Assembly: GCF_044704955.1 (NCBI RefSeq)
Contig: NC_091989.1
Location: forward strand, 80,724,001-80,788,000
Origin: Pristiophorus japonicus
Lineage: Eukaryota
DNA length: 64,000 nucleotides
Direction: 5' to 3'
Positions 18,227 to 60,090 of this stretch are shown here, piece by piece; within the stretch, counting starts at the first letter, position 1, and the number at the start of each line of letters is the position of its first letter. A model generated the notes under the pieces. It had not been told where the DNA came from, did not search any database, and worked only from the letters and a program-made list of their open reading frames with translations. A program made the translations under genes and the position numbers.

Positions 18227-18896
18227 TGCAATGTATTTGCTTCATGGGTTCTTTGCTTACGAATTCATAGCAACACATTGCTATTAAGAACAAGTTGGTT
18301 TATTAGTAAAAGGTTTAACAATCACACTACACATTGCCAGTTCATCCACCAGGCTCACAACCACCTGCCCCATCGTGGATCCCCCGAACCCAACTGGCTG
18401 GAGTTTTATTGAGTCTTGTGAACATCACGTGACTGGCTAAGCCACTCCCAACTCAACAGCTCTACAACTATTTTGGTAGAACGTAAAATCAAATGCCCTC
18501 TTTTGGCAAGGGCACTAGAACCCACAAATTAACAATTCAAACTTAAATCAAATTAAAATTTGGTTGCCGGGGGTGATGATGCACTTCAGTCCCTCCGGCG
18601 CCCATCTCTCGCGGAAGGCCACGAGCGTACCGGTGGACACCGCATGCTCCATCTCCAGGGACACCCTGGCTCGGATGTAATCGCGGAAGAGAGGCAGGCA
18701 GTCGGGCTGAATGACCCCCTCGACAACCCACTGCCTGGACCGGTCAATGGCCACCTTGGCCAGGCCCAGGAGCAGCCCCGCGAGGAGGCGTTCCAACCTG
18801 CCCGCTCCCCTCTGCACAGAGTGCAACCAGAATTTGAGGAGCAGCCCCTTCAAAAATGCAACAGCTCTACAAACCTGCGAGCATACATTACTCACA
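18227..18896 (-). mobile_element. Solo LTR (48444 family) containing a Tx1 insertion
   Basis: Reverse-complement match to 48444-48713, interrupted after caacagctctacaa. Confidence 0.85.
18468..18858 (-). mobile_element. Tx1/L1-clade LINE 3' fragment
   Basis: GLLLGLAKVAI...FRERWAPEGL; 14-bp TSD CAACAGCTCTACAA (18454, 18859). Confidence 0.85.
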
Positions 18897-19924
18897 CCTA
18901 GCACTGGCAGTTCTCACCTCAGTGAGTGGAAAAAGTAAGGGGGAAAAGCTCTTGTATTCTGTACAGTTTCTGGCTTGCCAACAAAGGTGCACTTCCTGCT
19001 AACACCAAGGCTGGAATCTGCCCAGCACCACGAGTGTGGTTTTGGAGGCGGGCCCACTGTCAAATGGCCATGATTGACATCAGGGTGGAATCCCACTCTG
19101 AACCCCTCTCCGTGTCAGTTTCTCTGCTGTCAGGTCTGTGTGCAGATCGCAAACCCAACACCAAGCAGCGGGCCAGTCAATCAAGATGCTTAAGAGGTAA
19201 TTTAAAGGCATTTAAAAGGATTTCATCCAAGCGCTTGTCATTTTACCAAGTTTTCAATGAGTTTGCCATCCCTCGGATTTCACACTAGGTAAGTGCATTG
19301 AGTTCCCAGTGACTCTCCATTGCTTTGCCTAGTTGACAGCTGCAGAAGTGGTATAAAAGCTACCATTTCACAGCTGTTCACTTTCCAATGTCAGAAGCTG
19401 AAGCCTTCAGGATTTGGAAGAAACTTTTGAGCTATATGCAGGTTGGAAGTGTTTGTGGTGAACTCTTGGAGCAACCTCTCTCACCAATGACAGATCGCTT
19501 CTGTCATCCCTACTTCACCTGCCATCTATTCCATCAGCATCGGTGCCCTTAAAAAAATCTCACCTTGGTTCTCAGAATCCCACCACTATCAGCCCCAACA
19601 CCAGCAGCACCAGGCACACCAGCAGCACCAACAACACCAACCTTCTCTGCAATCACCTGATGTTGCACAGGACAAAGGGCATCAGCACCTGACCACATTG
19701 CTGCCAGGAAGGCCAGGGATGGTCTAACCCTGGCCACATTTACTTCACTTCACGCTGTACACCCTGGCTGCTACATGATGCATCAGGTTGGCACCAGCCC
19801 ACACCAGCACCAAAGCACCCCTACAATGCCCAAGCCATTCCTTTCAAACTTTTCACCATTGACCATTAATTACAACTTACTAAACCAAAGGTGCACACAA
19901 CTCTGTCCAAGAACACAAAGTGAT

Positions 19925-20540
19925 GGCAATTCGACCTTCTGCCGGGGGAGTGGCAATGGCAGCGGAAAGCAGTTGCGTCCGGACGGGCGGCCAGCTTCCA
20001 GCGCCCCGCCGGGACATTCGGGGCCGGTATCGGTGGGGCGCGGAGCAGTACTGCCCAGGAAAGGCGAGCCGGTGTGCAACACCCCTGGTTGTGACACCGG
20101 CTCGATTTTTGGTTACCGCCCGACCCGTAGTGCTCTGTAGCACCCCCTGCTGGGAACGCCTGTGGTTGCGGGCAGTCCGAGCTGCAACGGCTGCAGTGAG
20201 GTAAGTAATGCCGACCTTAGGTAAGTGTGATTGGTTTAAAACATTTTTTGGGCGGTTTATGTTGTGGTGGCGTGGACTATGTATCGGGAATGTTTTTGGT
20301 ATTTTTTTCAGGTTGTTATTTCTCCCCAGGTCTCTCTTAGAGCGCTCCGAGGCCGGCTGTTTAGCTCGAGATTTTTCCATGCTCAGCCGACCTAGTGCCC
20401 TGAGAGAGGTGTGTAACGCCTCCCTTAGCGCCCAGCCCCACACTCAGGGCCCAGCTGATTCATTTTGCAGCAGCAGACGGCGTAAAATTTACCGCTCCGC
20501 CTGGAACAACGTCACAACTGAAGCGCGGCCGAATTTTCAC
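19925..20540 (+). mobile_element. GC-rich non-autonomous element, same family as 17260
   Basis: Shared blocks such as ggccggctgtttagctcg, ccacactcagggcccagc and ggtaagtg. Confidence 0.7.
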
Positions 20541-20799
20541 CACAAAGTGTTCAAAATAAAGATTACAATGCTTGACAACACATTAGCAGAAACTCTACAT
20601 AAACATTGACTAAAACACCCAAGTGCCTACCCTTGTGTGTTGTTAGTTGGTATGATTGGACAAGAATGAGGGTAAATGTGAGGAGTGGCTAGTGAGATGG
20701 GGATGTGATAACGTAGATAGATAGAGAGGGATGGGTGGAGGTGTAAGGTCAGTTGGTGTGAGTAAGGATGTGCAGGAGTCGGGTAGGGGAGGCAGAATG

Positions 20800-21250
20800 A
20801 TGGGGATATGATGAGAGGCACAGCAGGATGAGGTTGAGTGTGGCCTTTCAGTAACATTTCGTGATCTACTGAGGTCATTGAAAGGTTTGTACCACTGCAG
20901 CCTGGTCCTCCTGACAACATCCCTACTTGTGCCCTCCTGTGCAATGTGCAACCAAGCTGCGTTGGTGTCCTGGGGAGGTCTCTTCCACCTATTGGAAGGG
21001 AAGAGGAATTCCTTGTGTGCTGTGACTCCATAAGCATCTGGAGGGAGTAATGGGAGAGCCTGGGTGCAGCCCTGTGTCTTTCTGCAATGACTGTCAGTGT
21101 TTGCAGCACCTCAATGCTGTAGAACACAAATGTAAAAAAAAAGTTGGCCAGTGTCCCTTTGAGGAAACCGGTTGATGACGCGGCATCAAATGACGTCATC
21201 AGACCCGCTTCCTGTTCATTAGCCGGGAACCTCGCAGGGAACCTGACAAG
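20800..21250 (-). pseudogene. Highly decayed Myb/SANT partner remnant of an older Harbinger-like element
   Basis: AAPRLSHYSLQML and RTRLQWYKPFNDL in different frames resemble the RAPRFS..L and QC.KKFNDL patterns. Confidence 0.4.
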
Positions 21251-21346
21251 CCCCACGAAGGGAAGATTGTGTTGAAAGGGCAGGATGGAACCCCAAGGTC
21301 CAGTCTCACCACTGTTGCCGAAATCGCGGTCCAAATCTCTGTTTAC

Positions 21347-21454
21347 CTTTAGTGATTCCAGGAATTTCATATCACCGAGCATCTTCTTCGCAGAGGGCCA
21401 GTAATCGTCTGAACTTTTCCCATTTTCATCCACTTTTTTCTCAGGTTTAATTCC
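21347..21454 (-). CDS. Dynein heavy chain exon 6 of 11 (MTBD)
   Basis: 108 nt, GIKPEKKVDENGKSSDDYWPSAKKMLGDMKFLESLK. Acceptor tttaag, donor gtaaac. Confidence 0.92.
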
Positions 21455-21611
21455 CTTAAAAAGGGAGATAAAAGTTGGACAGATAACTCTCCATGTTTCA
21501 CATTTCTAAACCCAGCCACAGACCTCATCGGGTGCTGGTTGTGATCATTGAGAGCATGCTCGGCCGGGAGGGTTATATCCTGTTACACAGAGTGTACATA
21601 TTATCCCACAG

Positions 21612-21855
21612 TCATCCTGGTTAATCTTTGCCAGTGGACCAAAACCTAGCTTTGTCAAGCCCGTGTGGTGGCTGGTGTGCAATGGTTACCACATGTTAAA
21701 AAAATCCATGCACAGACATCTTCTACCCTACAGGATGTAGTTCAGGATCTGGAATATTGGGTCCTTCATTGAAACACCTGTCAACTCATCCTTTTTTGGC
21801 GTGGAAGCAAGTCATCCTCGCTTCGAGGGACTGCCTATGATGATGATGAAGATGA
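21612..21855 (+). mobile_element. Non-autonomous RTE-tailed retroposon, copy 2
   Basis: Same body and tail as copy 1. Confidence 0.75.
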
Positions 21856-22071
21856 CATATTATCCCACTGCTCAAGTGCAGCCTCATGTAGCCGAATACC
21901 CAATTTCCCTTAAAGGTTTAATTTAGCTACGTTTCTGAGCTCAACTTGAAGTTGGCTAAGTCAATTAGAGGCCAGCAGAAATCAGTAGGAAATGACTAGA
22001 TTTCTTTCTTTTTTTTAAATAATGTTGACACTCTGAAGTGTGACAATATGAGACCTGATACACATACATAC

Positions 22072-22197
22072 CAATGTTCCCTCTAATGTTTTTTCTTTCA
22101 AATTTCTGCGCGCGCGGTTTTTCCATTTAGAAGCCGGTGAGCGGCTGGGCGGGACCTCCGGAATGCTGCAAGGCCGCACAGATTAAAGGGAACATTG
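22072..22197. mobile_element. Small MITE, hAT-like termini
   Basis: CAATGTTCCCTCTAA ... TTAAAGGGAACATTG, 15-bp TIR with one mismatch; TSD not clean. Confidence 0.65.
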
Positions 22198-22329
22198 ATA
22201 CCAAATTCTAGTGAAGTGGGGTTAGACGCTGAAAGAGAGAGTTAGACATTGGTGCACCAGCACAATTCAGACACCATTTGAAAGTCACATGTTTTGTTCT
22301 TATTTTTATATTTCCATATTTTTACATTT

Positions 22330-23295
22330 TTCTTTTATTTATTCATGGGATGTGGGCGTTGCTGACAAAGCCAGAATTTATTGCCCTTGAGAAGGTGGTG
22401 GTGAGCCACCACCGAGAACCGCTACAGTCTGTGGTGAAGGAGCTCCCACAGTGCTGTTATGGAGGGAGTTCCAGGACTTTGACCCAGCGACAATGAAGGA
22501 ACGGTGATATATTTCCAAGACAGGATGGTGACTTGCAGGTGGTGGTGTTCCCATGCGCCTGCTGCCCTTGCCTTCTAGGTGGTGGAGGTCACAAGTTTGG
22601 CGGGTGCTGTCGAAGAAGCCTTGGCGAGTTGCTGCAGTGCATCTTGTAGATGGTACACACTGCAGCCACAGTGCGCCGGTGGTGGAGGGAGTGAATATTT
22701 AAGTTGGTGGCTGGGATGCCAATCAAATGGGCTGCTTTGTCCTGGATGGTGTCGAGCTTCTTGAGTGTTGTTGGAGCTGTACTCATCCAGGCAAGTGGAG
22801 AGTATTCCATCACACTCCTGGATTGTGCCTTGTAGATGGTGGAAAGGCTTTGCGGAGTCAGGTGGTGAGACACTCGCCGCAGAATACCCAGCCTCTGACC
22901 TGCTCTTGTTGCCACAGTATTAATGTAGCTGGTCCAATTAAATTTTGGTCAATGATGACCCCCAGGATGTTGACAGTGGGGGATTTGGTGATGAAGGTAA
23001 TGCCGTTGAATGTTAAGGGGAGGTGGTCAGACTCTCGTTTGTTGGAGATGGTCATTGCCTGGCACTTGTGTGGCACGAATGTTACTTGCCACTTATCAGC
23101 CAAAGCCTGAATGTCGTCCACGGACTGCTTCATTATCTGAGGAGTTGCGAATGGAACTGAACATTTTGCAATTATTAGCAAACATCCCCACATCTGACCT
23201 TATGATGCAGGAAGGGTCATTGATGAAGCAGCTGAAATGGTTGGGCCTAGGACACTGCCCTGAGGAACTCCTGCAGTGATGTCCTGGGGCTGGGA
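22330..23295 (-). mobile_element. Non-LTR retrotransposon 3' part (CR1/L2 group; differs from the dominant CR1)
   Basis: GVPQGSVLGPTI, ADKWQVTF, IYKAQSRSVMEYSPLAW, SLHHRR. Confidence 0.8.
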
Positions 23296-23696
23296 TGCCG
23301 ACATAAACTTAGTATGCTGTAATTGCATCCTCACACCAGTGGTGGCACTATAGCACCACAGTTGTACATTCCCCAACTCCTCGGTCTGTACTGCAGAGAA
23401 ACTCCAAACAACACTACTGCCCTGCTTCACAAATTCCCCAAGATTTTGACAAAAGTTTTATCTAAATATATATATTTAACATATATAAAATAACAAAAAT
23501 AAATCTGTTCTTATGTAACAGCATATCATCTAAGACTGGAGCTCAATTTTCCCCAGTTATCTGCACCGTTTTTTTGGCATACGGTGCTTTTTTTGGCGTC
23601 AATTAAAAAATCCAAGTAGTCCCCAAAGTTTCTGTGCCAGCGTAACTCAGTTAGATACGATTTTTTTAGGTTAGTATTTTTTTGCGTCATAGGAAG

Positions 23697-26600
23697 CAAC
23701 ATAAGAACATAAGAAATAGGAGCAGGAGTAGACCATACAGCCCCGCGAGCCTGCTCCACCATTTAATACGATCATGGCTGATCCGATCATGGACTCAGGT
23801 CCACTTCCCCGCCCACTCCCCATAACCCCTTATTCCTTATTGGTTAAGAAGCTGTTTATCTCTGTCTTAAATTTATTCAATGTCCCGGCATCCATAGCTC
23901 TCTGAGGCAGCGAATTCCACAGATTTACAATCCTCTGAAAAAAGAAATTCCTCCTCATTTCAGTTTTAAATGGGCGGCCCCTTATTCTAAGATCATGCCC
24001 TCTAGTTCTAGTCTCCCCCATCAGTGGAAACATCCTCTCTGCATCCACCTTGTCAAGCCCCCTCATAATCTTATATGTTTTGATAAAATCACATCTCAAT
24101 CTTCTGAATTCCAATGAGTAGAGGCCCAACCTACTCGACCTTTCCTCATAAGTCAACCCCCTCATCTCCAGAATCAACCTAGTGAACCTTCTCTGAACTG
24201 CCTCCAATGCAAGTATATCCTTCCTTAAATATGGAGACCAAAACAGTACGCAGTACTCCAGGTGTGGCCTCACCAATATCCTGTACAGTTGTAGCAGGAC
24301 TTCTCTGCTTTTATACTCTATCCCCCTTGCAATAAAGGCCAACATTCCATTTGCCTTCCTGATTACTTGCTGTACGTGCATACTAACTTTTTGTGTTTCG
24401 TGCACAAGGACTCCTAGGTCCCTCTGTACTGCAGCACTTTGCAATTTTTCTCCATTTAAATTATAATTTGCTTTGCTATTATTTCTGCCAAAGTGGATAA
24501 TCTCACATTTTCCCACATTATACTCCATCTGCCAAATGTTTGCCCACTCACTTAGGCTGTCTATATCCCTTTGCAGATTTTTTGTGTCCTCCTCACAATT
24601 TGTTTCCCCACCCACCTTTGTATCATCAGCAAACTTGGCTACATTACACTCGGTCCCTTCATCCAAATCATTAATATAGATTGTAAATAGTTGAGGACCC
24701 AGCACTGATCCCTGCGGCACCCCACTAGTTACTGTTTTCCAACCGGAAAATGACCCATTTATTCCGACTCTGTTTTCTGTTAGTTAGCCAATCCTCTCTC
24801 CATACTTATATTACCCTCAACCCCATGAGCTTTTATCTTGTGCAGCAACCTTTTATATAGCACCTTATTGAATGCCTTCCTGGAAATCCAAATACACCAC
24901 ATCCACTGATTCACACTTATCCACCTTGCTCATTACATCCTCAAAGAACTCCAGCAAATTTGTCAAACATGATTTCCCTTTCATAAAATCATGCTAACTC
25001 TGCTTGATTGAATTATGCTTTTCCAAATGTCCTGCTACTACTTCCTTAATAATGGACTCCAGCATTTTCCCAACTACAGATGTTAGGCTAACTGGTCTAA
25101 AGTTTCCTGCTTTTGGTCTGCCTCCTTTTTTAAATAGGAACGTTACATTTGTGGTTTTCCAATCCGCTGGGACCACCCCAGAATCCAGGGAATTTTGGTA
25201 GATTACAACCAATGATTCCACTATCTCTGCAGCCACTTCTTTTAAGACCTTAGGATGCAAGCCATCAGGTCCAGGGGACTTGTCCGCCTTTAGTCCCATT
25301 ATTTTACCAAGTACTACTTCCTTAGTGATTGTGATTATATTAAGTTCCTCTCTCCCTACTGTCTCTTGATTATCCACTATTGGGATGTTTTTAGTGACTT
25401 CTACCATTAAGACCAATACAAAATATTTGTTCAAAGTCTCTGCCATTTCCCTGTTCTCAATTATTCATTCCCCAGTCTCATCCTCTAGGGGACCAACATT
25501 TACTTTAGCTACTCTTTTCCTTTTTATGTATCTATAGAAACTCTTACTATCTGTTTTTATATTTTGTGCTAGTTTACTTTCAAAATCTATCTTCCCTCTC
25601 TTTATCATTTTTTTAGTCATTCTTTGCTGGCTTTTAAAAGTTTCCCAATCCTCTGGCTTCCCGCTAGTCTTGGCCACATTGTATGCCCTTTTTTTCAATT
25701 TGATACCATCCTTTATTTCCTTAGTTAGCCACAGATGGTTATCCCTTCTCTTACAGTCTTTCCTTCTCATTGGGATAGTTTTGTTACAAGTTATGAAATA
25801 TCACCTTAAATGTCTGCCACTGCTCATCAACTGTCCCATACTTTAATCTATTTTCCAAGTCCACTTTAGCCAACTCTGCCCTCATACCTTTGTAGACTCC
25901 TTTATTTAAGCTGAGGACACTGGTTTGAGATCCAACTTTCTCATCATCCAACTGAATTTGAAATTCAACCATGTTATGGTCACTCATTTCTAGAGGATCT
26001 TTACTACGAGATCATTTATTAATCCCTTCTCATTGCACCGTACCAGATCTAAGATTGCCTGCTCCCTGGATGGTTCCGCAACGTACTGTTCAAGGAAACT
26101 ATCCCGATACACTCTATGAACTCTTCTTCAAGGCTACTCTGGCCAATCTGCTTTGTCCAATCAATATGGAGGTTAAAATCGGCCATGATTATTGCTGTTC
26201 CTTTATTATAAGCCTCCATTATTTCTTGATTTATACTCCGTCCAACAGTGTCGCTACTGTTAGGGGGCCTATAGACTACACCCACCAGCAACTTTTTCCC
26301 CTTATTATTCCATATCTCCACTCAAACTGATTCAACATCTTGATCTTCTGAGCCAATATCGTTTCTCACTAACGCACTGATCTCATCCTTTATCAACAGA
26401 GCTACCCCACCTCCTTTTCCTTTCTGTCTGTCCTTCCAAATTGTCAAATACCCCTGAATATTTAGTTCCCAGCCTTGGTCACCTTGCAACCACGTCTCTG
26501 TAATGGCTATCAGATCATACCCATTTGTATCTATTTGTGCCGTCAACTCATCTATCTTGTTATGAATGCTGCGTGCATTCAGATAAAGAGCTTTTAAATT

Positions 26601-26745
26601 TGTTTTTTTTACCATTTTTACCCCACTTTTTGATTCACCTTTATGTTTATACATTCTGTCCCTTCCTGTCATGCTCTGGTTTTCATTTTCCCCAGCGCTA
26701 CCCTGCTCTATTGCCTTTTCCTTATTCTTTGACTTTTTTAATTTT
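23697..26745 (-). mobile_element. Long CR1 LINE (near-complete decayed ORF2: APE endonuclease + RT) inside the Harbinger left arm
   Basis: YLNARS, IAITETW, GVVYRPP, SDHN, SPGPDG, PQGSVLGP, FADDTK, and the 3' tail. Confidence 0.93.
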
Positions 26746-26989
26746 CATAACCTGATATCTGTGCCAGTTTTTTACATTTAAGCAAGTTTGGCCAACTTAC
26801 ATTTTTCCTAGGATGGCGTATGTGACCACCCCCAAAAAGCCTTCTGTGCACTTAAGAAAAACCAGCTGACATAAAAAAATTGGCACAGAAAGACGCCAGT
26901 GTTTTTCGGTGAAGTTTTGGAGGGAGTCAAGAAGACATAAATATGCATCATGAAGCTTAATTGTTTCAATATCAAAAGGGAGAAAATGG

Positions 26990-27384
26990 AAGTCTAATGC
27001 AATTCTTTACTTTTGATTTTTTTTCAAAGTGCCACACCACCACCGAACGTCTCCTCACCAGGCTTGAGGGTCAGAGCGTCGGCCGGCAGAATCGTTCCTC
27101 ACCCAGACACAGGGGCTTGGGGCTAGGCTTTAAAAGAAGCCCGGGGGTGGATGGGGTGGGGGGTGGAAACCGAACTGAAGGGATAAGAACCCTTAGACTA
27201 TACAGCAGCTTCAAAAGAAGCCCGGGAGTTTGGGGGGGTGCAGCGGGGAGTGGATGCTGAGCCCCTGTGTCCGGGCGAGGGAATGATTCGGCCGGCCGAC
27301 ACTCGAGCCCGATATGGAAATGTTCAGTCGGTGGTGGGCTGGTATTTTGAAAAAAATCTAAAATTAAAGAATTGCATTAGACTT
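26990..27384. repeat. Long imperfect inverted repeat upstream of the Harbinger transposase
   Basis: aagtctaatgcaattcttta...cccagacacaggggct pairs with agcccctgtgtccggg...taaagaattgcattagactt. Confidence 0.8.
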
Positions 27385-27562
27385 TGTTGCCCCAAATGTC
27401 TTCATTAAATGCCTAGCTTCCCGTTCTGAACAAGTCTATTGCGCATGCGCAGACCAGGGTGTGATCCATACTAGGGCATCCACCTTGGAGAGAGAGAGAG
27501 GAAAGAAGGTGTGAGTGCTTTGTCCTGCTGTTCTGAGCATCTTGCAAAGATACAATTTAATT

Positions 27563-28762
27563 ATGGGGGCAATATTGACAATGCCATACCTCGTGCAAGG
27601 CTTCTGCAAGATGGTGCTGCGGAGGAGAAGATTGATTAGACATCATCGCATGAGGAACCTCAGAGCATGTAGGGTGATGGGCAGGAGGCCTTACCTACGT
27701 CGGGTATATCGAGACAGGCGATCGTACTTGCACCTGAGTGATGCAGACTGTGTGCGAAGGCTGTGTTTCCGCAAAGAAGTTGTAACCGAGATCTGTGAGT
27801 TAGTAAAAGCAGACCTGCACCCTAGAAGCATCAAGAGGACTGCTTTGTCAGTTGAAGTAAAGGTTACAGCTGCACTTTCGTTCTATGCACCTGGATCATT
27901 CCAGGCTACAACTGGGGATGTGTGCACCATTTCTCAACATGCAACACATATCTGCATTCGGAAAGTGACTGCTGCACTATATGCCCAGAGGAATGACTAC
28001 GTAAAGTTCCCCATGACTGCCCAGGCAATGCATGACAGGGCTGTGGGCTTCTCCAGAATTGCTGGCTTCCCAAAGGTACAGGGCTGCAATGATTGTACCC
28101 ACATTGCCTTGAGAGCATCTTTGGAGGATTCTGAGATGTACAGGAACAGAAAAGGCTTCCACTCTGTGAAGTTGCAGCTCGTCTGTGACGACATATATCG
28201 CATCATATCAGTTGATGTAAGATACCCTGGGAGCACCCATGATGTATTCATCCTACGCGGGAGCGCTATATCTGCCATGTTTCAGCAGCAGCCAGAAAGG
28301 CAGAGCTGGCTGCTGGGAGACAAAGGATACGGCCTCGCCACCTGGCTCATGATGCCCCTACACGTAACCCGGACGGAAGCTGACCGGGAATACAACATGT
28401 CGCACATTGCGACGCGCAGCATAACAGAGAGGACCATTGGCATCTTGAAGCAGTGTTTCCGATGTCTGGACCATTCTGGAGGCTACATGCAATACTCCCC
28501 TGAGATTGTCGGTCAGTTCACTGTTGTGTGCTGCATGCTGCATAACTTAGCAATCATGAGGCAGCAGCAGCTGGTAGTTGAAGACCCACCTGAGGTGAGA
28601 GTGGCTGATAATGAGGAGGAAGATGCAGATGACGAGGAGGAAGAGGAAGTCTTGCAACTACCTGAACCCGAAGTACGACGGCGGAGGGCAGGCCGTCGTG
28701 CTCCTTTAACGATTGCTCGAGCCTTGCGCCAGCAGCTCATCCGTGAACACTTTGCTGCCTGA
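27563..28762 (+). CDS. Harbinger transposase (HARBI1-like DDE nuclease), 399 aa from first ATG
   Basis: Uninterrupted ORF with GCNDCTHI, YRNRKGFHS, RYPGSTHD, WLLGDKGY, RSITERTIGILK and CCMLHN. The D/D/E triad is present. It is transposon-borne, so not host HARBI1. Confidence 0.92.
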   Translation: MGAILTMPYLVQGFCKMVLRRRRLIRHHRMRNLRACRVMGRRPYLRRVYRDRRSYLHLSDADCVRRLCFRKEVVTEICELVKADLHPRSIKRTALSVEVKVTAALSFYAPGSFQATTGDVCTISQHATHICIRKVTAALYAQRNDYVKFPMTAQAMHDRAVGFSRIAGFPKVQGCNDCTHIALRASLEDSEMYRNRKGFHSVKLQLVCDDIYRIISVDVRYPGSTHDVFILRGSAISAMFQQQPERQSWLLGDKGYGLATWLMMPLHVTRTEADREYNMSHIATRSITERTIGILKQCFRCLDHSGGYMQYSPEIVGQFTVVCCMLHNLAIMRQQQLVVEDPPEVRVADNEEEDADDEEEEEVLQLPEPEVRRRRAGRRAPLTIARALRQQLIREHFAA

Positions 28763-29046
28763 AGGCTCAGCAGCAACTATTCCAAATGGACCATGTTTAC
28801 TGTTTGGACATGTTCCGTAATGTTGTGTTATGTTAATGGAACAAATAATGGAAATGATTCAGTTATAATTAAAAATATATTTTATTCAGAAGTTTAACAC
28901 TTGTTTGTACTTAACTTAACTTTAATAAAAGTATTCTTGTATCAAACTTTAAAGTTTTCAGTTAAGATCACTTACAAACTTTTAAATTTGTCAATTTACA
29001 TCACTTACAAAAATTTGAAAACAGTTACAACAGTAACATAAATAAT

Positions 29047-29575: not shown

Positions 29576-29634
29576 AGAACAACAACAATAACAGCAACAA
29601 AGAAAGGCTGCACCCATCTCGCCTCCACCTTAAT

Positions 29635-35259: not shown

Positions 35260-35384
35260 CTGCAGAAGAACCACACAGTTACCCAGTGACTGGGAGAGGA
35301 CGCGAGGCTGACCCAAATACAGTGACGTCAAGCGGCATGTTTGCACCATTTTCATTACAACAATCAAACGGAAACATTTGTCAC

Positions 35385-37180: not shown

Positions 37181-37199
37181 ATTGGACGGATGTAAAAGA

Positions 37200-43680: not shown

Positions 43681-43732
43681 TTCCGGAAAGTTAAAAGCTC
43701 TAACCAGTCACGTAGGCTGATATGTAATCAGC

Positions 43733-48443: not shown

Positions 48444-48713
48444 TGTAATGTGTGTATCTGTGAGGATGCTCATAGGTTGGTGGAGCTGTTGAGTTGGGAG
48501 TGGCTTAGCCAGTCACATGATGTTTACAAGACTCAATAAAACCCCAGCCAGTTGGGTTCGGGGGATCCATGATGAGGTGGTTGTGAGCCTGGTGGATGAA
48601 CTGGTAATGTGTAGTGTGATTGTTAAACCTTTGCTAATAAACCAACTAGTTCTTAATAGCAATGTGCTGCTATGAATTCTTAAGCAAAGAACCCATCAAG
48701 CAAATACATTACA
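48444..48713 (+). mobile_element. Solo LTR, 270 bp, uninterrupted
   Basis: TGTAATG...CATTACA termini, AATAAA, 5-bp TSD CCCAC (48439-43, 48714-18). Confidence 0.9.
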
Positions 48714-49209: not shown

Positions 49210-49860
49210 ACAGGTGGAAATTCTGTTGGGGCGTTAGCTCGGGCAGAGCGGTAAATTTTGCGCCGGGAAATGGTTTGCGTTTCCAGCCGCAAAAATTCAC
49301 CAGCTGGGCCCTGAGTGTGGGGCGGGGTGCTAAGGATGGTGTTCCACAGCTTCTTTAGGGGGCTAGGCCGGCTGAGCAAATGAAAATCCCGAGCTAAACA
49401 GCTGGCCTCGGAGCGTCCTAAGAGAGGCTTCCGTGAAAAAAAATCTGAAAAAAAACCCACCAAAAACAATTCCAATACATTCCTGACGCCACATACCATG
49501 TGAATCGCAAAAATAAAAACATTTAAAGCCAATCACACTTACCTCAGGGCGACATTCCTTCCCTTACTGCGGCCACTACAGCTCGGACTGCCCGCTTTCC
49601 CAGGCGGTCCCACCAGGGGGCGCTGCGGGGGCGCTGCGGATTGGATGAATTTCAGATATCGAGCCGGTGTCACAACCAGGGGGCGTTGCACACCGGCTCG
49701 CCTCTCCTGGGCGGTAATGCTCCGTGCCCCCGCAAACCCAGCACCGAGTGTCCCGGCAGGGAGCTGGAAGATGGCCGCCCGCCCGGAAATGTTTCCCGCT
49801 GCAATTACCGCCCCTCTGGGGCAAAAACAGAGGCAGCAACAGACTGAAAATCCAGCCCCA
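49210..49860 (-). mobile_element. GC-rich non-autonomous element, same family as 17260
   Basis: Reverse-complement match; ends aaaatccagcccc. Confidence 0.72.
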
Positions 49861-50001
49861 TGCATATGGCTCCCACTCAGGTTTACAGATCCCGGAGAAT
49901 GATTGGGAACGGAATAGGCGGGACACTGGATCAAATGACCAATGTGCTCTGCTTGATCCTGGAGCCAGTGGAACATCTAAGCACATTTCACTTCAACCTA
50001 C

Positions 50002-50164
50002 CTGAGACGCTGCGAAGTCCAGCTTTTCCAGTCCAACTCCATACCTGTTCCTGTTGGTCAACAACTCAAGCCTTTTCCTTTCCAACAGGTTTTTAAATAT
50101 CTTAATCAGTTCGAGGTAGGACGTGGGTGTGACGTAAGTTCTCCTTTGAAGAGATGCATAGAAT
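50002..50164 (-). CDS. Dynein heavy chain exon 3 of 11 (not in ORF track)
   Basis: 163 nt, FYASLQRRTYVTPTSYLELIKIFKNLLERKRLELLTNRNRYGVGLEKLDFAASQ. Acceptor ctccag, donor gtagg, phase 2/0. Confidence 0.95.
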
Positions 50165-50194
50165 CTGGAGACGGCAACATTTTTAGCAAGTTAA

Positions 50195-51480
50195 CAAAAA
50201 GCAGAACACTGCAGATGCTGGAAATCTGAAATAAAAACAGAAAATGCTGGAAATCTCAGCGGGTCAGGCAGCATCTATGGAGAGAGAGACAAGAACGTAA
50301 GAAATAGGAGCAGGAGTCAGCCATTTGGCCCCTCGAGCCTGCTCCGCCATTCAACAAGACCATGGCTGATCTGATCATGGACTCAGCTCCACTGCCCTGC
50401 CCATCCCTTATCTGTTTATCACCACCTTAAATATATTCAATGACCCAGCCACCACAGCTCTCTGGGATAGAGAATTCCACAGATTTACAACCCTCAGAGA
50501 AGAAATTCCTCCTCACCTCAGTTTTAAATGGGTGGCCCCTTATTCTGAGACTATGTCCCCTAGTTTTAGTTTCCCCCATGAGTGGAAACATTCTCTCTGC
50601 ATCCAACTTGTTCAGTCCTCACATTATCTTATATGTTTCAATAAGATTACATCTCATTCTTCTGAACTCCAATGAGTATAGGCCTACCCTACTCAATCTA
50701 TCTTCATAAGTCAACCCCCTCATCTCTGGAATCAACCTAGTGAACCTTCTCTGAACAGCCTGCAATATAAGTATATCCTTCCTTAAATACGGAGACCAAA
50801 ACTGCATGCAGTACTCCAGGTGTGGCCTTATAATGCCCTGTACAGTTGTAGCAGGACTTCTCTGCTTTTATATTCTATCCCCCTTTGCAATAAAGGCCAA
50901 CATTCCATTTGCCTTCCTGATTACATGCTGTATCTGCATACTAACTTTTTGTGTTTCATGCACAAGGACCCCCAGGCCCTTCTGTACTGCAGCACTTTGC
51001 AATTTTTCTCCATTTAAATTATAATTTGCTTTTCTATTATTTCTGCTAAAGTGGATAACCTCACATTTTCCCACATTATACTCCATCTGTCAAATTTTTG
51101 CCCACTCACTTAACCTGTCTATATCCCTTTGCAGATTTTTTGTGTCCTCCTCACAATTTGCTTTTCCACCCATCTTTGTATCATCAGCAAACTTGGCTAC
51201 ATTACACTCGGTCCCTTCATCCAAGTCATTAATATAGATTGTAAATAGTTGAGGACCCAGCACCGATCCCTACTGTTTGCCAACTGGAAAATGACCCATT
51301 TATCCCAACTCTCTGTTTTCTGTTAGTTAGCCAATCCTCGATCCATGCAAACAGAGTTAATATGTTTCAGGTCGATGACCTTTCGTCAGAACCTCGCGAC
51401 CTGAAGCGTTACCCGTCCTTCCTTTCTCCACAGATGCTGTCTGACCTGCTGAGTGTTGCCATGATCTTCGGCTTTTATTT
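50195..51480. mobile_element. Palindromic Penelope-like terminal-repeat element split by a CR1 (50195-50289 and 51349-51480)
   Basis: ctcagcgggtcaggcagcatctatggaga vs tctccacagatgctgtctgacctgctgag form inverted arms; hammerhead-like core near the centre. Confidence 0.55.
50290..51348 (-). mobile_element. CR1 LINE 3' part inserted in a palindromic Penelope-type repeat
   Basis: CR1 ORF2 C-terminal peptides and 3' hairpin. Confidence 0.88.
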
Positions 51481-52304
51481 AACTTCTCTGAAAACAAACA
51501 ATTTTTTCCTTTTATTAGTTCTGAAAGATAAACTGAATTAAAATTGACAAATAGAGGTGGTAATTCCTGTCGTCTATCACAAATTCAATTCTTAATGGGC
51601 ATTTAAAAAAAAATCATCATTTTGGTTTTATATTTATGCCTAATTATGTTAGAACGTCTCCACAGAATTAGAACTGACAGGTCACGTGCATGTTGTGGAA
51701 AGAGCACTCATCGCCTCTCTCGGTCCTGTCTCACTCCCTTTGTCACCAATGCCCCTCACCCTCACATAATCTCAGGTGGAGTGCGGGACTGCTCGAGACT
51801 TGAGCCCAGGAGAAAATAAGGGAAAATAGGGATTGAAGTTGCTGTGACATTTAACTAGCTGGAGTGAGTGAGGCTGATTCAATAATGCCGGCCCGGATAC
51901 AGTTGCCCTATCTCTGCCAGCACTCTCCCACTTGCCTGTTCACTCCCACATACTTTAATATTGCGGTGATTATTTGCACCATTGTTCCCACTCTCCTCTG
52001 CGCAGGCGCACTTGATCCAGTTGCATGTGCAGCGGCTGCAGACTGACCACCACGCTTTCCTCACTTTCCTCACCTCACTGCGGAGATCAGGGCATATTTT
52101 AGTGCCCTGGGGGGAGGGGGGGGAGGGGAGAGTGGATCAAAAAGGGGAGAATGGATCAAAAGAGAGAGAGAGAAGAGAGGGGATGAAAGACAAAAGTGGA
52201 TTGGGAGGAGGGGGGCGTTGTGAAGAGAGAGGAGAGTGGCTCAAAAGGGGTGAGAATACATCAAAGGAGAAAAGGGAGAGGAGCTCGGGGGTGGAGGGGA
52301 GAAG

Positions 52305-52480
52305 GTCAGGAACTCGGGGTGGGCGGTGGGTTCAGGAACTCGGGGCGGGCGGTGGGTTCAGGAACTCGGGGCGGGCGGTGGGTTCAGGAACTCGGGGCGG
52401 GCGGTGGGTTCAGGAACTCGGGGTGGGCGGTGAGTTCAAGAACTCCGGGCGGGCGGTGGGTTCAGGAACTCGGGGGTGGG
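52305..52480. repeat. 26-bp G-rich minisatellite, about 6-7 copies
   Basis: Unit gggcggtgggttcaggaactcggggc. Confidence 0.88.
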
Positions 52481-53289
52481 GAGAAAGTCAGGAACTTGTT
52501 GGGGGGAAAGAATGTCCTAACCCATGAGGGTGAGCCCTGTTTATGCTCTGAAAGCAGCGCTGTGAGCTCTGTCTGGAACCTGGCAGTCAGAATGAATGGA
52601 TCAAATTGCACATTGTAAAGTACTTGATTACTCAGGCAGGCAGGATCTAATTACACATTGCAGACAAACAGCGGGGTGTGTCCTGTCCTCCATGGGGACC
52701 AATCAGAAATCTGCTCTTGCAATCCAAGGAGGCCAATCAGAACTTGATGTTGCAACACACTGCCCTTTAATAACCCACCCAGTCTAATCCCATCCCCCTG
52801 TACCCATTAATATACCACCCAGTCTAATCCCACTCACCTACTCAATCCCACATCCTTTAATATCCCACCCAATCTAATCCCACTCTTCTACTCTACCTCT
52901 ATACCCTTTAAAATTTATCTTATTCACGTGACACTCTAATTCTCATTTATAATAATTGATCATTCTTTTTGAATGATGGTTTATGGTAGAAAATACTACA
53001 TTTTACCCCCTTTCTAGATAAATAATTTTACTCCAACCTCCCCCATAGATTGTTCCTGTTTGGGGAATGGGTGAATCCAGTGTGTGTGATGGGTGGCACC
53101 CATTGAATCCTGGGTCAGGTTTGTGGCAGTACAATAGGAGTTTATTGTGCTGTTAGATTGTGTCTCGATGGTCTGAGACATTGTGATGCACCCAGCTGTA
53201 GCTATAATATCACTGTATGGGCAGATCACCAGCGATGGGTGTTGGTACAGGCAGTGCGTCTGAATCTCCTCCGCACCCTTTCCAACCTT

Positions 53290-54100
53290 AGAGAGAGTGC
53301 AGGGGAGATTTACTGGAATGGTCCCAGGAATGAGGGACTTCAGATATTTGGAGAGACCAGAGTAGCTGGGGTTGTTCTCCTTAGAGCAGAGACAGTTAAG
53401 GGGAGATTTAGCAGAAAAGCTAAAATGATGACTAGATCAGGAGAAACTGTTTCAATTGAACAGGAGGGCTGATAACCAGAGGACACAGATTTAAAATAAT
53501 TGGCAAATTAAAGGGGAGATGAGGAGAATTTATTTTGCTCAATGAGTTGTGATCTGGAACCCGCTGCCTGAAAGGGCGGTAGAAGAAGATTCAATAGCAA
53601 CTTTCAAAAGGGAATTGAATATATATTTGTAAAAGAAAAATTTGTGGGCTATGGGGATGCAGAGAGGATATTTCCACTCATAGGGGAAACTAAAACTAGG
53701 GGACATAGTCTCAGAATAAGGGGCCACCCATTTAAAACTGAGATGAGGAGGAATTTCTTCTCTCAGAGGGTTGTAAATCTGTGGAATTCTCTGCCCCAGA
53801 GTGCTGTGGAGGCTGCGTCTTTAAATATATCTAAGGCGGTGATAGACAGATTTTTGAGCGATAAGGGAGTAAAGGGTTATGGGGAGCGGGCGAGGAAGTG
53901 GAGCTGAGTCCATGATCAGATCAGCCATGATCTTATTGAATGGTGGAGCAGGCTCGAAGGGGCCAAATAGCCGACTCCTGCTCCTATTTCTTATATTCTT
54001 ATGAAAAAGCAGTGGAGTGGGACTAATTGGATAGCTCTTTCAAAGAGCCGGCACAGGCACGATAGGTCGAATGGCCTCCTTCTGTGCTGTAAGATTCTAT
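53290..54100 (+). mobile_element. Nested CR1 3' fragments
   Basis: TRGHSLRIRGHPFKTEMRRNFF; two CR1 tails (about 54002 and 54100). Confidence 0.8.
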
Positions 54101-54629
54101 GCATTAGAGTGAGCACCACCAGCTCCATAAACCTGAAATACTTCTGGGTTGCATGTCGTATTAGAAGTGTGGTGTAACCAAAGTGTTAGGCCCAAGTGTA
54201 TCAAACAGCTGGAGGCTGATCACAGTGTGACATACGCAGTATGCCCACAACAAAAGGGGGTAGGATTTCCCTGAAGCCTATATAAATTGCAATCGTTTAG
54301 GACCTCTGTCGTCTGCACAGAACGCGGCTGTCAAATCAGGCACACTAAAGGCAAAATACTGCGGATGCTGGAAATACTCAGCGGGTGCATTTCCAGCATT
54401 GTCTCTTCAAATTTCTGTCAAATCAGTGCTCGCTTCAAAAAAGCTCATCGCAATTCTTCCTCTATTGTGCCCTTTCTTCTAACAAAGTTACAGTGCTGAC
54501 ACTGAAACGTTGTGCTTCAGTGTGGGAGCTGTGTAACAAAAGAACTAAAAATACCCTGTCGAAGTTTTCTTTGATAAATCAGTTAAACGTACAACATAAT
54601 GTCTCTGCCTGTCCCTAGTTTGGGTGGAT

Positions 54630-55810
54630 ATTAAGGAAACGCGGCGCACTTACCGTGTTTGAGCTGTTTTCACCGCCGCGGTGGCCTCTTGAATGAAATT
54701 CCGCTATTTCACTTTTTTTCCCGGCGGACCAGAAGTCGGTCATAATGGGGGCAGAAGGGCGGTGGTGAGCGAAAGTCCGTACACTAGAGGGGCGGAAGTT
54801 GGGGAAGCGGAAGGAGTGTCCGCTGATGTCACTCATCAGCGTAGCGCTGATGACGTCATCGTGCTGGTGCATCACCACGTCTCTCCCCTTCACTTAAAGG
54901 GGAGGGCCGCTGCGAGCTCTGTGATTATTTTAGTTCAGACCACCGGGCCACCAGGGAGGGTTCCGGCTGGCACCCAACAGGGGGTACCAGGCTGCCTGTT
55001 GGCAGCCCGGCCGAACGTGGAGGGGCATAATTGTCGGCTCGACATGGCAGTCGACCGACAAGAAAAAGTAAGATGGCGGCCGCGGCGGTGCGCCCTCCCC
55101 TTTAATGGTGACCGCACCGCAATTTTGAACATGCTGCACCAGCAGGAAAAGCTGCACCGAGCGGTGGAAGCAAGATTTTCTCGGTGGAATCTCACATTCA
55201 GGGGAAACATCGGCAGTGCGTGCACTGATGACGCACTTCGGACGGAGCGGCAGCAGCGAAGCGGTGGGGGGGGGGTGGCGGGTGGGGGTGGGAAGCGGGT
55301 CACCGGCGGGATACTGCAGGAGCGGAATTTCCAAAATGGTGGCTATTTCACAAAAAATCGGCGGCCATTGCACTCTGTAGCATGGCCGCCAATTTCCAGC
55401 ATTTACAGGCCTTAAGGGAAGAGGCAATTACGGCCCCCTAAACGTCCCATGCCTGTCTCAGGCCTAGAAATTAGCCTCCTCAGCACCTCCCGTTTTCGCC
55501 TCCAGTGTCAATACTGGGGCGCTAAATATTAGCGACCGGGCGCGGTGAGAAGATTGACCCCCGCTGTATTCGGCGGCAGATTTGCGGCAGCGGTACGGTG
55601 TTGCACCCAGATCGCCTTCGCCCGGAGATCGCGTCACCATCGCCATGCGCATCGCCCCGGTAATGCCCCGAACCCAAACATGGATTCTGCCCCCTGCAGC
55701 ATCGCTGGGCGTAAACACCGACAGCTGCAGGAGGCGTGGATCGGGACGCCGGGCGTTTCGGGGGCGGCGCTTAAAGGCCAGGTGTCCGAGGTAAGCAAAT
55801 CTCAAATGCT
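54630..55810. mobile_element. CpG-rich non-autonomous DNA-transposon-like repeats (probably two elements)
   Basis: Abrupt GC/CpG-rich block with internal palindromes and no credible protein; similar in character to 1-265 and 17260-17877. Confidence 0.45.
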
Positions 55811-56097
55811 CTCTTTGAATTTTTTTCCCTGTTTTTCCCTCGCGATCGATGTCCCAAGTCTCAATGTTCGAGTGAGATATTAAAGAGCTAAAGTTGTTAA
55901 CCAATCTGCATCTATTTGTAAGAACATGAAGATTGTTAAACAGCTTGATGAAAATGTTCTCGCCACTTCAATTGATTCCATTCCAACACATAATCCCGAT
56001 GAATTTGTTCTTTCAGTGAAACGTCATTAGCAGAGAATTTATCGGTTATACAACTGAATTCAGTTCAGAGGAACACTTTCCAATGGCTGACGGGCAC

Positions 56098-56231
56098 CTT
56101 TCAGAGAGAGCAACGACACTCTGATGGAAATGTTTACACATGAGCACAGCTTCATTCCGGATTTCCTGCGACATTTCAACATCATCTAGGAAATGGTTTG
56201 CCACTTTCTCCAAGGCATCTTCAGGCCAGGC
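56098..56231 (-). CDS. Dynein heavy chain exon 2 of 11 (not in ORF track)
   Basis: 134 nt, AWPEDALEKVANHFLDDVEMSQEIRNEAVLMCKHFHQSVVALSE(R). Acceptor ttgtag, donor gtgccc, phase 0/2. Confidence 0.93.
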
Positions 56232-56439
56232 CTACAACATATAGACGAGGATACATTAGAATACATCCACAGCTCTGTCCATCGGTGGGACATTGATAGA
56301 CACAGGTTCAGTGTGACAGATTGGCTCACTGTGAGGCACTATGGTCCAGATCTTTCTCCTTGCACCAAAGTGGGTTGTTGAGGGACTTCTGCTAGCCAGC
56401 TCTGACCTTTGACCCTTCTCCGGAGTCAGGGTCAATCAC

Positions 56440-56876
56440 ATACGTAGAGGAAAGATTGGACATCTGGGGTTGTTTTCTTTGGAACAGAGAAGGCTGAGGG
56501 CAGACCTTATTGAGGTGCAAACAAACATGAGAGGCCTGGATAGAGTGGATAGGACGGACCTATTTCCCTTGGCAGAGGGGTCAACAAACAGGGGCATAGA
56601 TCTAAAGTAATTGGGGGTTTAGCGGCAATATGAGGGGAAATTTCTTCACCCAGAGGATGGTGAGGGTCTGGAACCCACTGCCTGAAAGGGTGGTAGAGGC
56701 AGAAACCCTCACCACATTTAAAAAGTACTTGGATGTGCACTTGAAGTGCGGTAATCTACAGGGCTACGGACCAAGAGCTGGAAAGTGGGATGAGGCTGGG
56801 TAGCTCTTGGTCGGCCGACACGGACACAATGGGCCGAATAGCCTCCTTCCGTGCTGAAAATTTCTATGATTCTATG
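56440..56876 (+). mobile_element. CR1 3' fragment
   Basis: FSLEQRRLR and FFTQRMVRVWN; (ATTCTATG)n tail. Confidence 0.8.
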
Positions 56877-57777
56877 AAAATGGAAAATTTCAGGAGGGAA
56901 ATCCAAGCCAGCACTTTCTTTCAAGTAAAGAGACCAAATTCATTAATAAATCAGTTTACAAATCAACTGTCTCATTAGAACATTCTAATTAATCACACAA
57001 CCCAGGAACACTCTAATTAATCACACATCCTACCGACAACAGGCTGTCATTATACAATTTGCAGCTGACTAGTTCTAATACTTTAATGGCTAAACTCTCA
57101 CATTCTGTGATGTGGTGGCACAGATGGGTTTATTCAGAAACTCTCTTTGTAAGTTATATCTTCCGCCAACACTAGTCAGCAGGGTGCTGGAGCAAGGAAT
57201 CTGACTGAGCAATACATTATTAATTCTGGCTCGAGGCTTCAATGACATCTCACATCCCTTTTCCAGGGAATTATTTACTCCTTGATGTCAGAAGAGTAAC
57301 ACTAATTCAAAATGAATTGACCCCTGTTGACAAATTTATCAACTCAACTTCCAGTTGCTAAACCTGTTGACGAATGTAAATAGACATACATTGATTATTG
57401 CTCTGTAGTTGACAATCTAGCCCTCTTTAATACCTTCGGAGTGAACATTAGAACAGCCCCTGGATACTGCTCTGCCATTCTATTAGCTCATGGCTAGTCT
57501 GTAACTCAACTCCATCTACCCACCTTTGCTCTATATCCCTGGATACGCTTACCCAACAAAGGTCTATGCAAATCAGTTTTAAAAGCTGCAATGCACAAAA
57601 CTGCTGTGCTAAATATTGCGGTTAGATATAAGGAAAATGTTAGCCATTATTCAGCTACTAAAGCTCAGTTAAACACTCCGCTAAATCCGTTAGTGGGGAA
57701 CACTAACAGCATGGGCAGACACTACATCAACAGAAAGCTTGCAGATAATAGTTGATGCCCATTGCTTATTCCTGCTT

Positions 57778-58690
57778 TAGAAACATAGAAACATAGAAAC
57801 ATAGGACTCAATTTTCCCCAGTATTTGCACTGTTTTTGAGAGCGAGAGAGAGGTAAGATGGTGCTATGTGTTTTTCAATCCTTTTAATGTGTTGGGAGCT
57901 GGCTGTATGTTTCACTTTGCAGCCTCAGGTCACATTGTGTCCCTGGTTACCATGGCAACCCCATCTTTTTGGCGCAGATCAAGGTTCCATCCCCCTCAGG
58001 TTCGGCCACACCAAAATGAAGAGATCCAACGGGGAAAATTACAACACATTTTTTTGGGGCATACTTGGGCCCTAAAAAAAAATCGGGCGTAACCCTTCAA
58101 GTACGGCAAAAAAATGCTTTGGGGAAAATTGAGCCCATAGAAACATAGAAATTTACAGCGCAGAAGGAGGCCATAACGGCCCATCGTGTCCGCGCCGGCC
58201 GACAAAGAGCCGCACGGTCCTTGGTCAGCAACCCTAAAGGTTACATATAAACCCATGAACAATGACAGAAAGGCAAAGAGCACCCAGCCCAACCAGTCCG
58301 CCTCATACAACTGCGACACACCTTACACTTGAAATATTCTACACTCCACCCCAACCGGAGCCATGGGATCTCCCGGGAGAGGCAAAAACCAGATAAAAAT
58401 CCAGGCCAATTTAGGGAGAAAAAATCTGGAAAAATTCCTCTCTGACCCATCCAGGCGATCGAAACTAGTCCAGGAGATCACCCTGGACTTATTCAATTCC
58501 CTGCAGTGATACCATTATATCTGCACCGGCCAACAAGAGGTTATCCAGTCTAATCCCAATTACCAGCTCTAGGTCCGTAACCCTGCAGGTTACTGCACTT
58601 TAAGTGCCCATCTAACCATCTCTTATAAGTGGTGAGGGTTTCTGCATCCACCACTCTTCCAGGCAGCGAGTTCCAGACCCCCACAACCTC
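57778..58690 (-). mobile_element. CR1 3' end with compound 3' UTR; tail interrupted by the MITE
   Basis: (TTTCTATG)n tail; the body matches both 56650-56876 and 35450-35710. Confidence 0.7.
57804..58136 (+). mobile_element. Harbinger/Tourist-type MITE, 333 bp, sharing TIRs with the element at 23539-32212
   Basis: GGACTCAATTTTCCCCA ... TGGGGAAAATTGAGCCC, flanked by 3-bp ATA duplication (57801-03, 58137-39). Inserted in a CR1 (ATAGAAAC)n tail. Confidence 0.88.
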
Positions 58691-58710
58691 GATTTAGCCT
58701 ATTTGGGCCC

Positions 58711-60065
58711 TATAATGTATTTGCTTCATGGGTTCTTTGCTTAAGAATTCATAGCAACACCTTGCTATTAAGAACTAGTTGGTTTATCAGCAAAAGGTTT
58801 AACAATCACATTACACATTACCAGTTCATCCACCAGCCCCATCGTGTATTCCCCGAACCCAACTGGCTGGGGTTTTATTGAGTCTTGTGAACACCACGTG
58901 ACTGGCTAAGCCGCTCCCAACTCAACAGCTCTACAACTATTTTGAGCATAACTTTAAATCAAGTTTCCCAGGAGATCACATGGCTCCAGTTGGGGTGGAG
59001 TGTAGAATGTTCTAGTATAAGGGGTGTCGCAGTTGTGTGAGGTGGATTGGTTGGGCTGGGTGCTCTTTGTCTTTCTGACATTGTTCATAGGTTTATATGT
59101 AACCTTTAGGGCTGTTGACCGAAGACTTGCGACTCTTTGTCGGCCGCCACAGACACGATGGGCCGGAATGGCCTCCTTCTGCGCTGTAAATTTCTATGTT
59201 TCTAAGTATCCCCTTTTGGCAAGGGCTCTAGAACCCACAAATTAACAAATAAAACTTTAAAGGAAACTTAAATCAAATTAAAATTTGGTTGCCAGGGGTG
59301 ATGATGCACTCCAGTCCCTCCGGCGCCCACCTCTCGCGGAAGGCCGTGAGTGTACCGATGGACACCGCGTGCTCCATCTCCAGGGACAACCTGGCTCAGA
59401 TGTAACCACGGAAGAGAGGCAGGCAGTCGGGCTGAATGACCCCGTCGACCGCCCGCTGCCTGGACCGGCTGATGGCCCCCTTGGCCAGGCCCAGGAGCAG
59501 TCCTACGAGGAGGCCTTCCAACCTGCTCGCTCCCCTCCGCACAGGGTGCCCAAAGATCAGGAGTGTGGGACTGAAGTGCAACCAGCATTTGAGGAGCAGC
59601 CCCTTCAGATATTGGAAGAGGGGCTGCAACCTCGCACATACAATTAAAACGTGGAACACGGACTCCTCCAGACCACAGAAATGACAGGCGCCTGGGAATC
59701 CGTGAACCAACTTAAAAACTTATTGCACGGGACTGCTCCTTGCACCACCCTCCAGGCCAAGTCCCCGATAAATAGAGGGAGGACTCCCGCTTGGAGTGCG
59801 CTCCATTGGGGAACCCTGCCTCCTCTGGAAGCAAGATGGTGCACCATGGCATGTCCGGACAGCAGACAAGGATGGCAACGTGGAGAGTGTGCAAGAGCAG
59901 CCCGTACAGGAATCCCCTCCGTGCAGAACTGAAAGGCACGGAAGGGATTTCCTGGAGGAGGCTCAAGTTGTGAGGCAATGGCTCCCGAGGGAGGTTTCGG
60001 GGCTTGGCGCCGATGAGGAATTCCATCCGGACGGGTAAACAGCTCTACAACTAGCATCGCCACAG
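58711..60065 (-). mobile_element. Solo LTR (48444 family) containing a Tx1 insertion
   Basis: Same LTR, interrupted at the same site; short decayed 5' remnant after 60053. Confidence 0.8.
58940..60037 (-). mobile_element. Tx1/L1-clade LINE 3' fragment with a CR1 piece (about 58963-59205) in its 3' UTR
   Basis: zf-RVT CHFCGLEESVFHVLIVC; TSD AACAGCTCTACAACTA (58924, 60038). Confidence 0.87.
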
Positions 60066-60090
60066 GTGCAGACATCAGAGGCCGAGTTAC

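Follow-up and report, generated by a model that had tools for sequence, protein, structure and literature searches.

Does a Tx1 retrotransposon choose long terminal repeat (LTR) retrotransposons as landing sites, and if so, by what steps? The question is raised by a 64,000-nucleotide stretch of the Pristiophorus japonicus genome (contig NC_091989.1, positions 80,724,001 to 80,788,000), the whole of which is called the window here. It contains three copies of one LTR, two of them interrupted by 3' fragments of a Tx1 element, and a first-pass annotation interpreted these as the work of a sequence-specific Tx1 family parasitising an LTR retrotransposon. The window and the genome-wide counts together make it very probable that the two inserts are independent, 5'-truncated Tx1 copies that prefer a single site of 14 bp, about 35 bp inside a Gypsy-type LTR, with an endonuclease nick and pairing of the RNA tail as the likely cause.

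Two insertions at one site

The three LTR copies are confirmed by alignment (Table 1). The empty copy has TG..CA ends as well as its CCCAC duplication, and it aligns at 93% and 89% to the interrupted copies. Both Tx1 inserts start at the same base and run in the same direction as the LTR, as first noticed, and their 5' truncations do differ, leaving 391 bp in one and about 860 bp in the other. The reported duplication of the target is present in both, and its length can be refined to 14 bp in copy 1 (CAACAGCTCTACAA, at 18454 and 18859) and 13 bp in copy 3 (at 58924 and 60038). One boundary had to be moved: the LTR of copy 3 extends to 60079 rather than 60065. The flanks of this LTR are GGCCC/GGCCG. 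In copy 1 only about 19 bp of the LTR 5' part are left (18873-18891), and no LTR duplication is found there. With two mismatches in the 14 target positions, the empty copy falls short of a perfect empty site. Compared with a full-length 7.1-kb Tx1 copy elsewhere in the genome (L178), the insert of copy 1 is 86-89% identical and that of copy 3 is 87% identical.

Preference for the LTR site across the genome

The LTR site is strongly preferred rather than strictly required. The 5.9-Gb genome was scanned with sequence patterns, and reversed patterns served as controls. The tail pattern located 3253 Tx1 3' ends, and the target motif (8 fixed bases, no mismatch) follows in 1591 of them. The reversed patterns gave no matches in either the tail/target or the perfect-target scan, which excludes chance. 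Among 76 ends picked by their tails, 52 are on target: 39 adjoin the LTR, 11 adjoin the target and another Tx1, and two adjoin the target alone. Two points temper these figures. The sample of 76 consists of the first such ends along chromosome C1 rather than a random draw, and 24 of these ends lie elsewhere, mostly in sequence starting with TTGT. A share of more than 20% of flanks of one type has been used to define target-specific families (PMC4494074); here the share is 52 of 76, or 1591 of 3253 by exact match, and in a sister family described below it is 84 of 100.

The 5' ends are heterogeneous, which points to independent insertions. The 71 mapped 5' joints, from 47 loci, fall at about 48 distinct places. 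The joints carry a target copy of 13-18 bp, and microhomology of 1-3 bp is seen in 26 of 51, a blunt junction in 11 and extra bases in 14. Fixed 3' ends, variable 5' truncation and target duplication are all present across the Tx1 loci. Most ends adjoin the LTR site, copies in other flanks are the minority, and the LTR-Tx1 composites do not share one 5' junction, so the proposal of a Tx1 family that parasitises an LTR retrotransposon is supported genome-wide.

The target is also heavily used. There are 5733 perfect targets with LTR sequence after them, and in the first 100, counted by eye, 72 are preceded by a Tx1 tail, an occupancy of about 72%. The older tail type accounts for 67 of these 72 tails. 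It was considered whether the LTR 3' part could be a transduced Tx1 tail. This was rejected: the duplications match the internal target and not the flank past the LTR end, and the LTR 5' part is usually found upstream. An apparent fourth target, represented by three CCCTGTG matches, was dropped because there is no Tx1 at these loci.

Off-target insertions suggest that the RNA end carries target-like bases. A duplication of their own was found at 14 of 28 off-target ends. In all 14, T is the first base of the junction, while the pre-insertion site begins with T in only six; the filter used for these junctions favours TG at positions 2-3. The presence of T at the eight junctions whose pre-insertion site lacks it indicates that it was supplied by the RNA.

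Some inserts are extremely short: at L082, L100 and L104, the two target duplicates enclose just the final 12-50 bases of the Tx1 tail. Off-target inserts of young subfamilies recur in two other repeats, one of them a 62-bp minisatellite (L260-L263; L260 is a tail remnant only). The Tx1 3' untranslated region (UTR) occurs in a form of about 92 nt and a form of 200-250 nt, and the long form has a GTG(T)CCCC..GGGGCAC inverted motif twice.

Identity of the Tx1 element and of its target

By its predicted protein the element is a non-LTR retrotransposon of the Tx1 clade, with a second open reading frame (ORF2) closer to Tx1L than to L1. The ORF2 of a long copy (L140) has the Pfam domains Exo_endo_phos, RVT_1 and zf-RVT, and two sister copies (L182 and L183) have open ORF2 frames of 1306 residues. 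The best database match of ORF2 is the Xenopus TX1 149 kDa protein (E 7e-106), and the ORF2 of L182 shares 643 of 1297 positions (50%) with Tx1L of Xenopus laevis. The match of the human L1 endonuclease to that of the element reaches only 79 bits. L178 and L182 are 89.7% identical over 7.2 kb.

The target LTR, judged from its predicted coding order, belongs to a Gypsy-type element. It is about 274 bp long with TG..CA ends, and at 14 of 30 LTR loci it is flanked by a 5-bp duplication with at least four of five bases matching. None of the 30 loci have internal sequence in common at their flanks. A primer site recurs after the LTR at five places among 100 rows, and this led to elements with two LTRs. 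L151 and L154 have two LTRs, a primer site and a purine tract, with flanks of GGTAG/GGTAG or CCCGA/CCAGA. At L153 alone, an LTR followed by the primer site has protease, reverse transcriptase and integrase, in that order, 3-6 kb further downstream, with other repeats intervening and one LTR seen. The element may be Mag-like with a tRNA-Ser primer; scans with Rfam and ARAGORN gave no tRNA call.

Several other features of this element were observed. In the remaining 16 of the 30 solo LTRs (L052-L081) the flanks match poorly, perhaps as a result of recombination between LTRs at ectopic positions. L151 has a perfect 5-bp duplication and about 310 bp between its LTRs; it is internally deleted and may be non-autonomous. 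At L152 (oriented 723-780; chromosome C4 near 55359750) the primer-site match extends about 55 bases past the LTR. This stretch resembles a tRNA 3' half in reverse complement, for which the tRNA scans gave no call. The next LTR is only about 180 bp further on.

The two-LTR elements bear on whether Tx1 was carried by its host. The LTR element could have multiplied one or a few ancestral LTR-Tx1 composites, which then underwent internal deletions. One 5' joint does recur in 21 places genome-wide, and the site is near the LTR 5' end, where an insert might have been able to reach both LTRs. However, L154 has Tx1 only in its 3' LTR and L155 only in its 5' LTR, which argues against spread as a composite, as does the number of distinct joints. 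The 21 copies that share the joint have varied 3' UTRs, and several follow another Tx1 tail instead of the LTR 5' part. Their mean body identity is 80%, a value lowered by interrupted copies. In addition, the recurrent joint coincides with a similarity between target and Tx1 (GAGTTGGGAG versus GGTCTGGAG). The varied UTRs and array positions fit a microhomology hotspot, and composite spread was rejected as highly improbable in favour of independent insertion.

Tandem arrays with shared 5' joints

Where Tx1 copies stand in tandem arrays, neighbours often have the same 5' truncation. At the tail-picked loci, 14 of 24 adjacent array pairs have starts within 3 bases of each other, compared with 28 of 2446 pairs between loci. 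An adjacent pair with a shared joint occurs in seven of 16 arrays. The 3' UTRs indicate that most of these pairs did not arise from one copy. Of 23 pairs with shared joints, a set that includes loci picked for this feature, none has copies that are each other's best UTR match, and in a single pair the mate is the best match for one copy. Most shared joints thus link copies from different masters, while a minority may be due to duplication or conversion.

The arrays appear to grow on one side. The longer UTR belongs to the left copy in 13 pairs and to the right copy in three, and UTR length is similar in 29. Long-UTR copies are younger on the whole in the ORF2 tree described below, which together with the position of the longer UTRs suggests that new copies are added at the duplicate beside the LTR 5' part. 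It is likely that the resident copy guides the 5' joint of the newcomer.

Part of the array evidence pulls the other way. Five of the 14 shared joints come from L102, which looks partly like a DNA duplication, and without it the count is nine of 19. Also, the array mate is the best body match in six of 21 shared-joint pairs, as copying or conversion would produce; this comparison was made after six artefact rows, in which both bodies start at the same site, had been dropped from 27. Shared joints could therefore have come from tandem duplication of DNA, by unequal crossover between target duplicates, or from gene conversion, with the targeting itself being real. The strongest case is L196, where the mate is 97.2% identical and the alternative 87.6%, and duplicated blocks are present at L102 and L104. 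In contrast, the UTR matches argue against such an origin, the UTR lengths differ with a polarity, and the bodies are 82-97% alike. As a general explanation of the shared joints, duplication or conversion is considered unlikely. Guidance by the resident copy is preferred, and it does not seem to involve copying of the resident's 5' part: there is no gradient of mate identity along the body (0.91, 0.91 and 0.92 for successive thirds, in 27 rows that include the artefacts).

A sister subfamily at LINE sites

The window also holds a tandem array of Tx1 with a different target. The first-pass annotation correctly listed the two LTR-site inserts and missed this sister subfamily at 61427-64000. The array is antisense in the ORF2 of a long interspersed nuclear element (LINE), which resumes after the third unit, itself passing the window end. 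All three fragments have one 5' joint in common, while the 3' UTR is different in each. The 99% body identity within the array was rejected as proof of duplication because unrelated young copies are also 99% identical. The protein matches of the LINE are APE-reverse transcriptase proteins of cartilaginous fish and birds, its closest named relatives being from skates, rays and sharks, and reverse transcriptase motifs are seen; from these motifs we take it to be CR1-like, although no listed match bore that name.

This second target is used throughout the genome. The sister tail occurs 2952 times, and in the first 100, assessed by eye, 84 adjoin the site in this LINE (CR1a), three match it partially and 13 are elsewhere. 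Twenty long copies picked by their endonuclease DNA comprise ten at the CR1a site, seven at a third site (CR1b) and three at the LTR site. The CR1b site corresponds to the same DLGVLVH codons in a second CR1-like family. Full-length young sister copies were also observed in tandem arrays with a 7.2-kb unit.

It is likely, from a tree and the element's own sequence, that one lineage switched from the LTR to the CR1-like LINE sites. A tree of the 3' end of ORF2 was built from the 63 of 195 copies that cover its last 700 bp and was rooted at the midpoint. It forms a ladder from short-UTR LTR copies to long-UTR LTR copies, then to CR1b and CR1a copies, and finally to nearly identical CR1a copies. 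The short-UTR LTR copies have end branches of 0.06-0.12, and the CR1-target copies have the shortest ones. The CR1-target copies are nested inside the LTR-target copies (branches 100/99, 99/93 and 95/89). Furthermore, all 17 CR1-target copies with a complete 5' end start with a 12-13-mer that resembles the LTR target. Branch lengths, nesting and this 5' remnant are the reasons for placing the LTR first.

Other observations make the switch and its direction less certain. Three LTR-target copies are found in or beside the CR1-target clade, and the ORF2 tree has no root other than its midpoint. Support is weak in a tree of the endonuclease and reverse transcriptase domains (26 copies), where none of the target groups comes out as a single clade. 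Motifs similar to the 5' remnant are repeated in the 5' UTR of the element itself, and an LTR origin is therefore not required for the remnant.

An alternative is a single enzyme of relaxed specificity that used all three targets at once, with the apparent order due to target supply or sampling. The endonucleases share 92-93% identity, and five aligned copies show no change in the hairpin-loop region. The LTR and CR1b sites are alike (CAGGTTTGTAGA versus CAGGGATCTGTGGA), and copies with one and the same tail type occupy all three targets (75, 7 and 8 of 100 rows). However, copies with like targets group together on both trees (0 of 200 label shuffles are as low), though kin share labels. At endonuclease residue 67, 12 of 13 CR1a copies have Ser, whereas all seven CR1b and four of six LTR copies have Cys; residues 163 and 201 track the CR1a target less well. 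The off-target flanks shift from TTGT in the LTR type to mostly TTTC in the sister type. Finally, the youngest tail type is absent from the LTR target in 100 rows, although empty targets remain. A single relaxed enzyme is thus a rather improbable account, and a switch of targets within one lineage is favoured.

Proposed mechanism

The following steps could account for the insertions. An APE endonuclease would nick the bottom strand at CAGGT^TTGTAGAGCTG. The transcript, which has no poly(A) at the junctions, would extend a few bases into target sequence and prime reverse transcription on the nick. The duplication would come from cleavage of the top strand about 13-16 bp downstream, and the 5' joint would form where the complementary DNA pairs with the top-strand end. 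The duplicate beside the LTR 5' part would recreate the site, allowing later copies to be added on that side. There, the top-strand end would reach into the first bases of the resident, next to the cut, and pair with the newcomer's complementary DNA at the homologous position, so that the newcomer is probably truncated where the resident begins. With fewer LTR sites left empty, younger subfamilies would probably have moved to one site in two CR1-like LINEs.

A more speculative proposal, which is possible but not favoured, joins two of these ideas. Target bases at the end of a read-through RNA would steer the next insertion, so that landing in a new repeat re-aims the descendants with few endonuclease changes (from LTR to CR1b to CR1a), and the resident copy would set the newcomer's truncation to the base. 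If this were true, it would describe a LINE parasitising the coding sequence of another LINE, with the switch preserved in one genome together with young full-length copies that have an open ORF2.

Relation to known systems

Targeting of LTR retrotransposons by Tx1 is already known in kind. The first-pass annotation left open whether this target had been described, and the general kind has been: the crocodilian families Tx1-8_Crp and Tx1-4_AMi prefer specific groups of LTR retrotransposons (Kojima 2015, PMC4494074). Other crocodilian Tx1 families use Mariner, Harbinger or microsatellite targets, close relatives of these two use other transposons (Mariner-N4_AMi), and tandem insertions around a duplication are described there as well. 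The host group is different, and the available text of PMC4494074 mentions neither a LINE target nor shared truncation in arrays.

Tx1L of Xenopus laevis (P0001) likewise has an APE-based preference for another transposon, in its case the DNA transposon Tx1D, and its enzyme is described as nicking almost only its target (PMC1950540, PMC6719617, available text). By comparison, roughly one insertion in three misses the target in the present element, whose putative hairpin loop is three residues shorter. In Drosophila, R1 arrays grow by insertion into the 5' duplicate of a resident, and the 5' joints of truncated copies show microhomology (Stage and Eickbush 2009, PMC2718515). Growth at the 5' duplicate, a 14-bp duplication and microhomology at truncated joints are common to both elements. 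Unlike the present one, R1 belongs to a different clade and has an rRNA target, and shared truncation between array mates is not reported in the available text of PMC2718515. Annealing of RNA to the target is known for SART1Bm and R1Bm (PMC7265360), which differ in having telomere and rDNA targets and, for SART1, a poly(A) tail. Background on target change and on Tx1 placement was drawn from accessible parts of PMC8869645 and PMC3747384.

What seems to be new is the likely move to LINE targets, together with truncations that match the resident copy. A literature search found nothing on shark Tx1 with these targets, CR1-targeting Tx1 or shared array truncation; Repbase, Dfam and most subscription papers were outside this search, so the families may already be catalogued. 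Target change in target-specific retrotransposons has mostly had to be deduced by comparing distant families. In this genome, three sites are used by old and young subfamilies that share about 90% identity over 7 kb and have few endonuclease differences, residue 67 being the first. Such close subfamilies make the roles of the enzyme and the RNA tail directly testable. The shared truncation in arrays is a natural read-out of 5' joint priming, the less understood half of LINE integration.

Features of the window

The coordinates of the LTR copies, their inserts and the LINE-site array are given in Table 1.

Table 1. LTR copies, Tx1 inserts and second-target LINE in the window
Feature	Position	Strand	Remarks
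LTR copy 1, 3' part (positions ~35-274 of predicted Gypsy-type LTR)	18227..18467	-	Holds target duplicate 18454-18467
5'-truncated Tx1 in copy 1	18468..18858	-	391 bp; ORF2 end and short 3' UTR; internal deletion of ~26 bp
Second target duplicate of copy 1 (18859-18872, 14 bp) and LTR 5' part remnant	18859..18891	-	
Empty solo LTR	48444..48713	+	5-bp duplication CCCAC; target site 48478-48491, 2 mismatches
LTR copy 3, 3' part	58711..58936	-	Holds target duplicate 58924-58936
5'-truncated Tx1 in copy 3	58937..60037	-	~860 bp, short-UTR type; later ~240-bp repeat inside
Second target duplicate of copy 3 (60038-60050) and LTR 5' part	60038..60079	-	5-bp deletion in LTR part
CR1-like LINE ORF2, 3' end	60717..61440	-	Site 61427-61440 is the second target
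Three young sister-Tx1 fragments, tandem array in CR1-like LINE	61441..64000	+	Target duplicates between units: 62588, 63722

The repeat inside the Tx1 of copy 3 (58966-59204), a putative CR1 insert, resembles a neighbouring repeat at 58138-58378, with 89% identity. A minisatellite with a 16-bp unit in 112 copies starts at position 15166 of the window.

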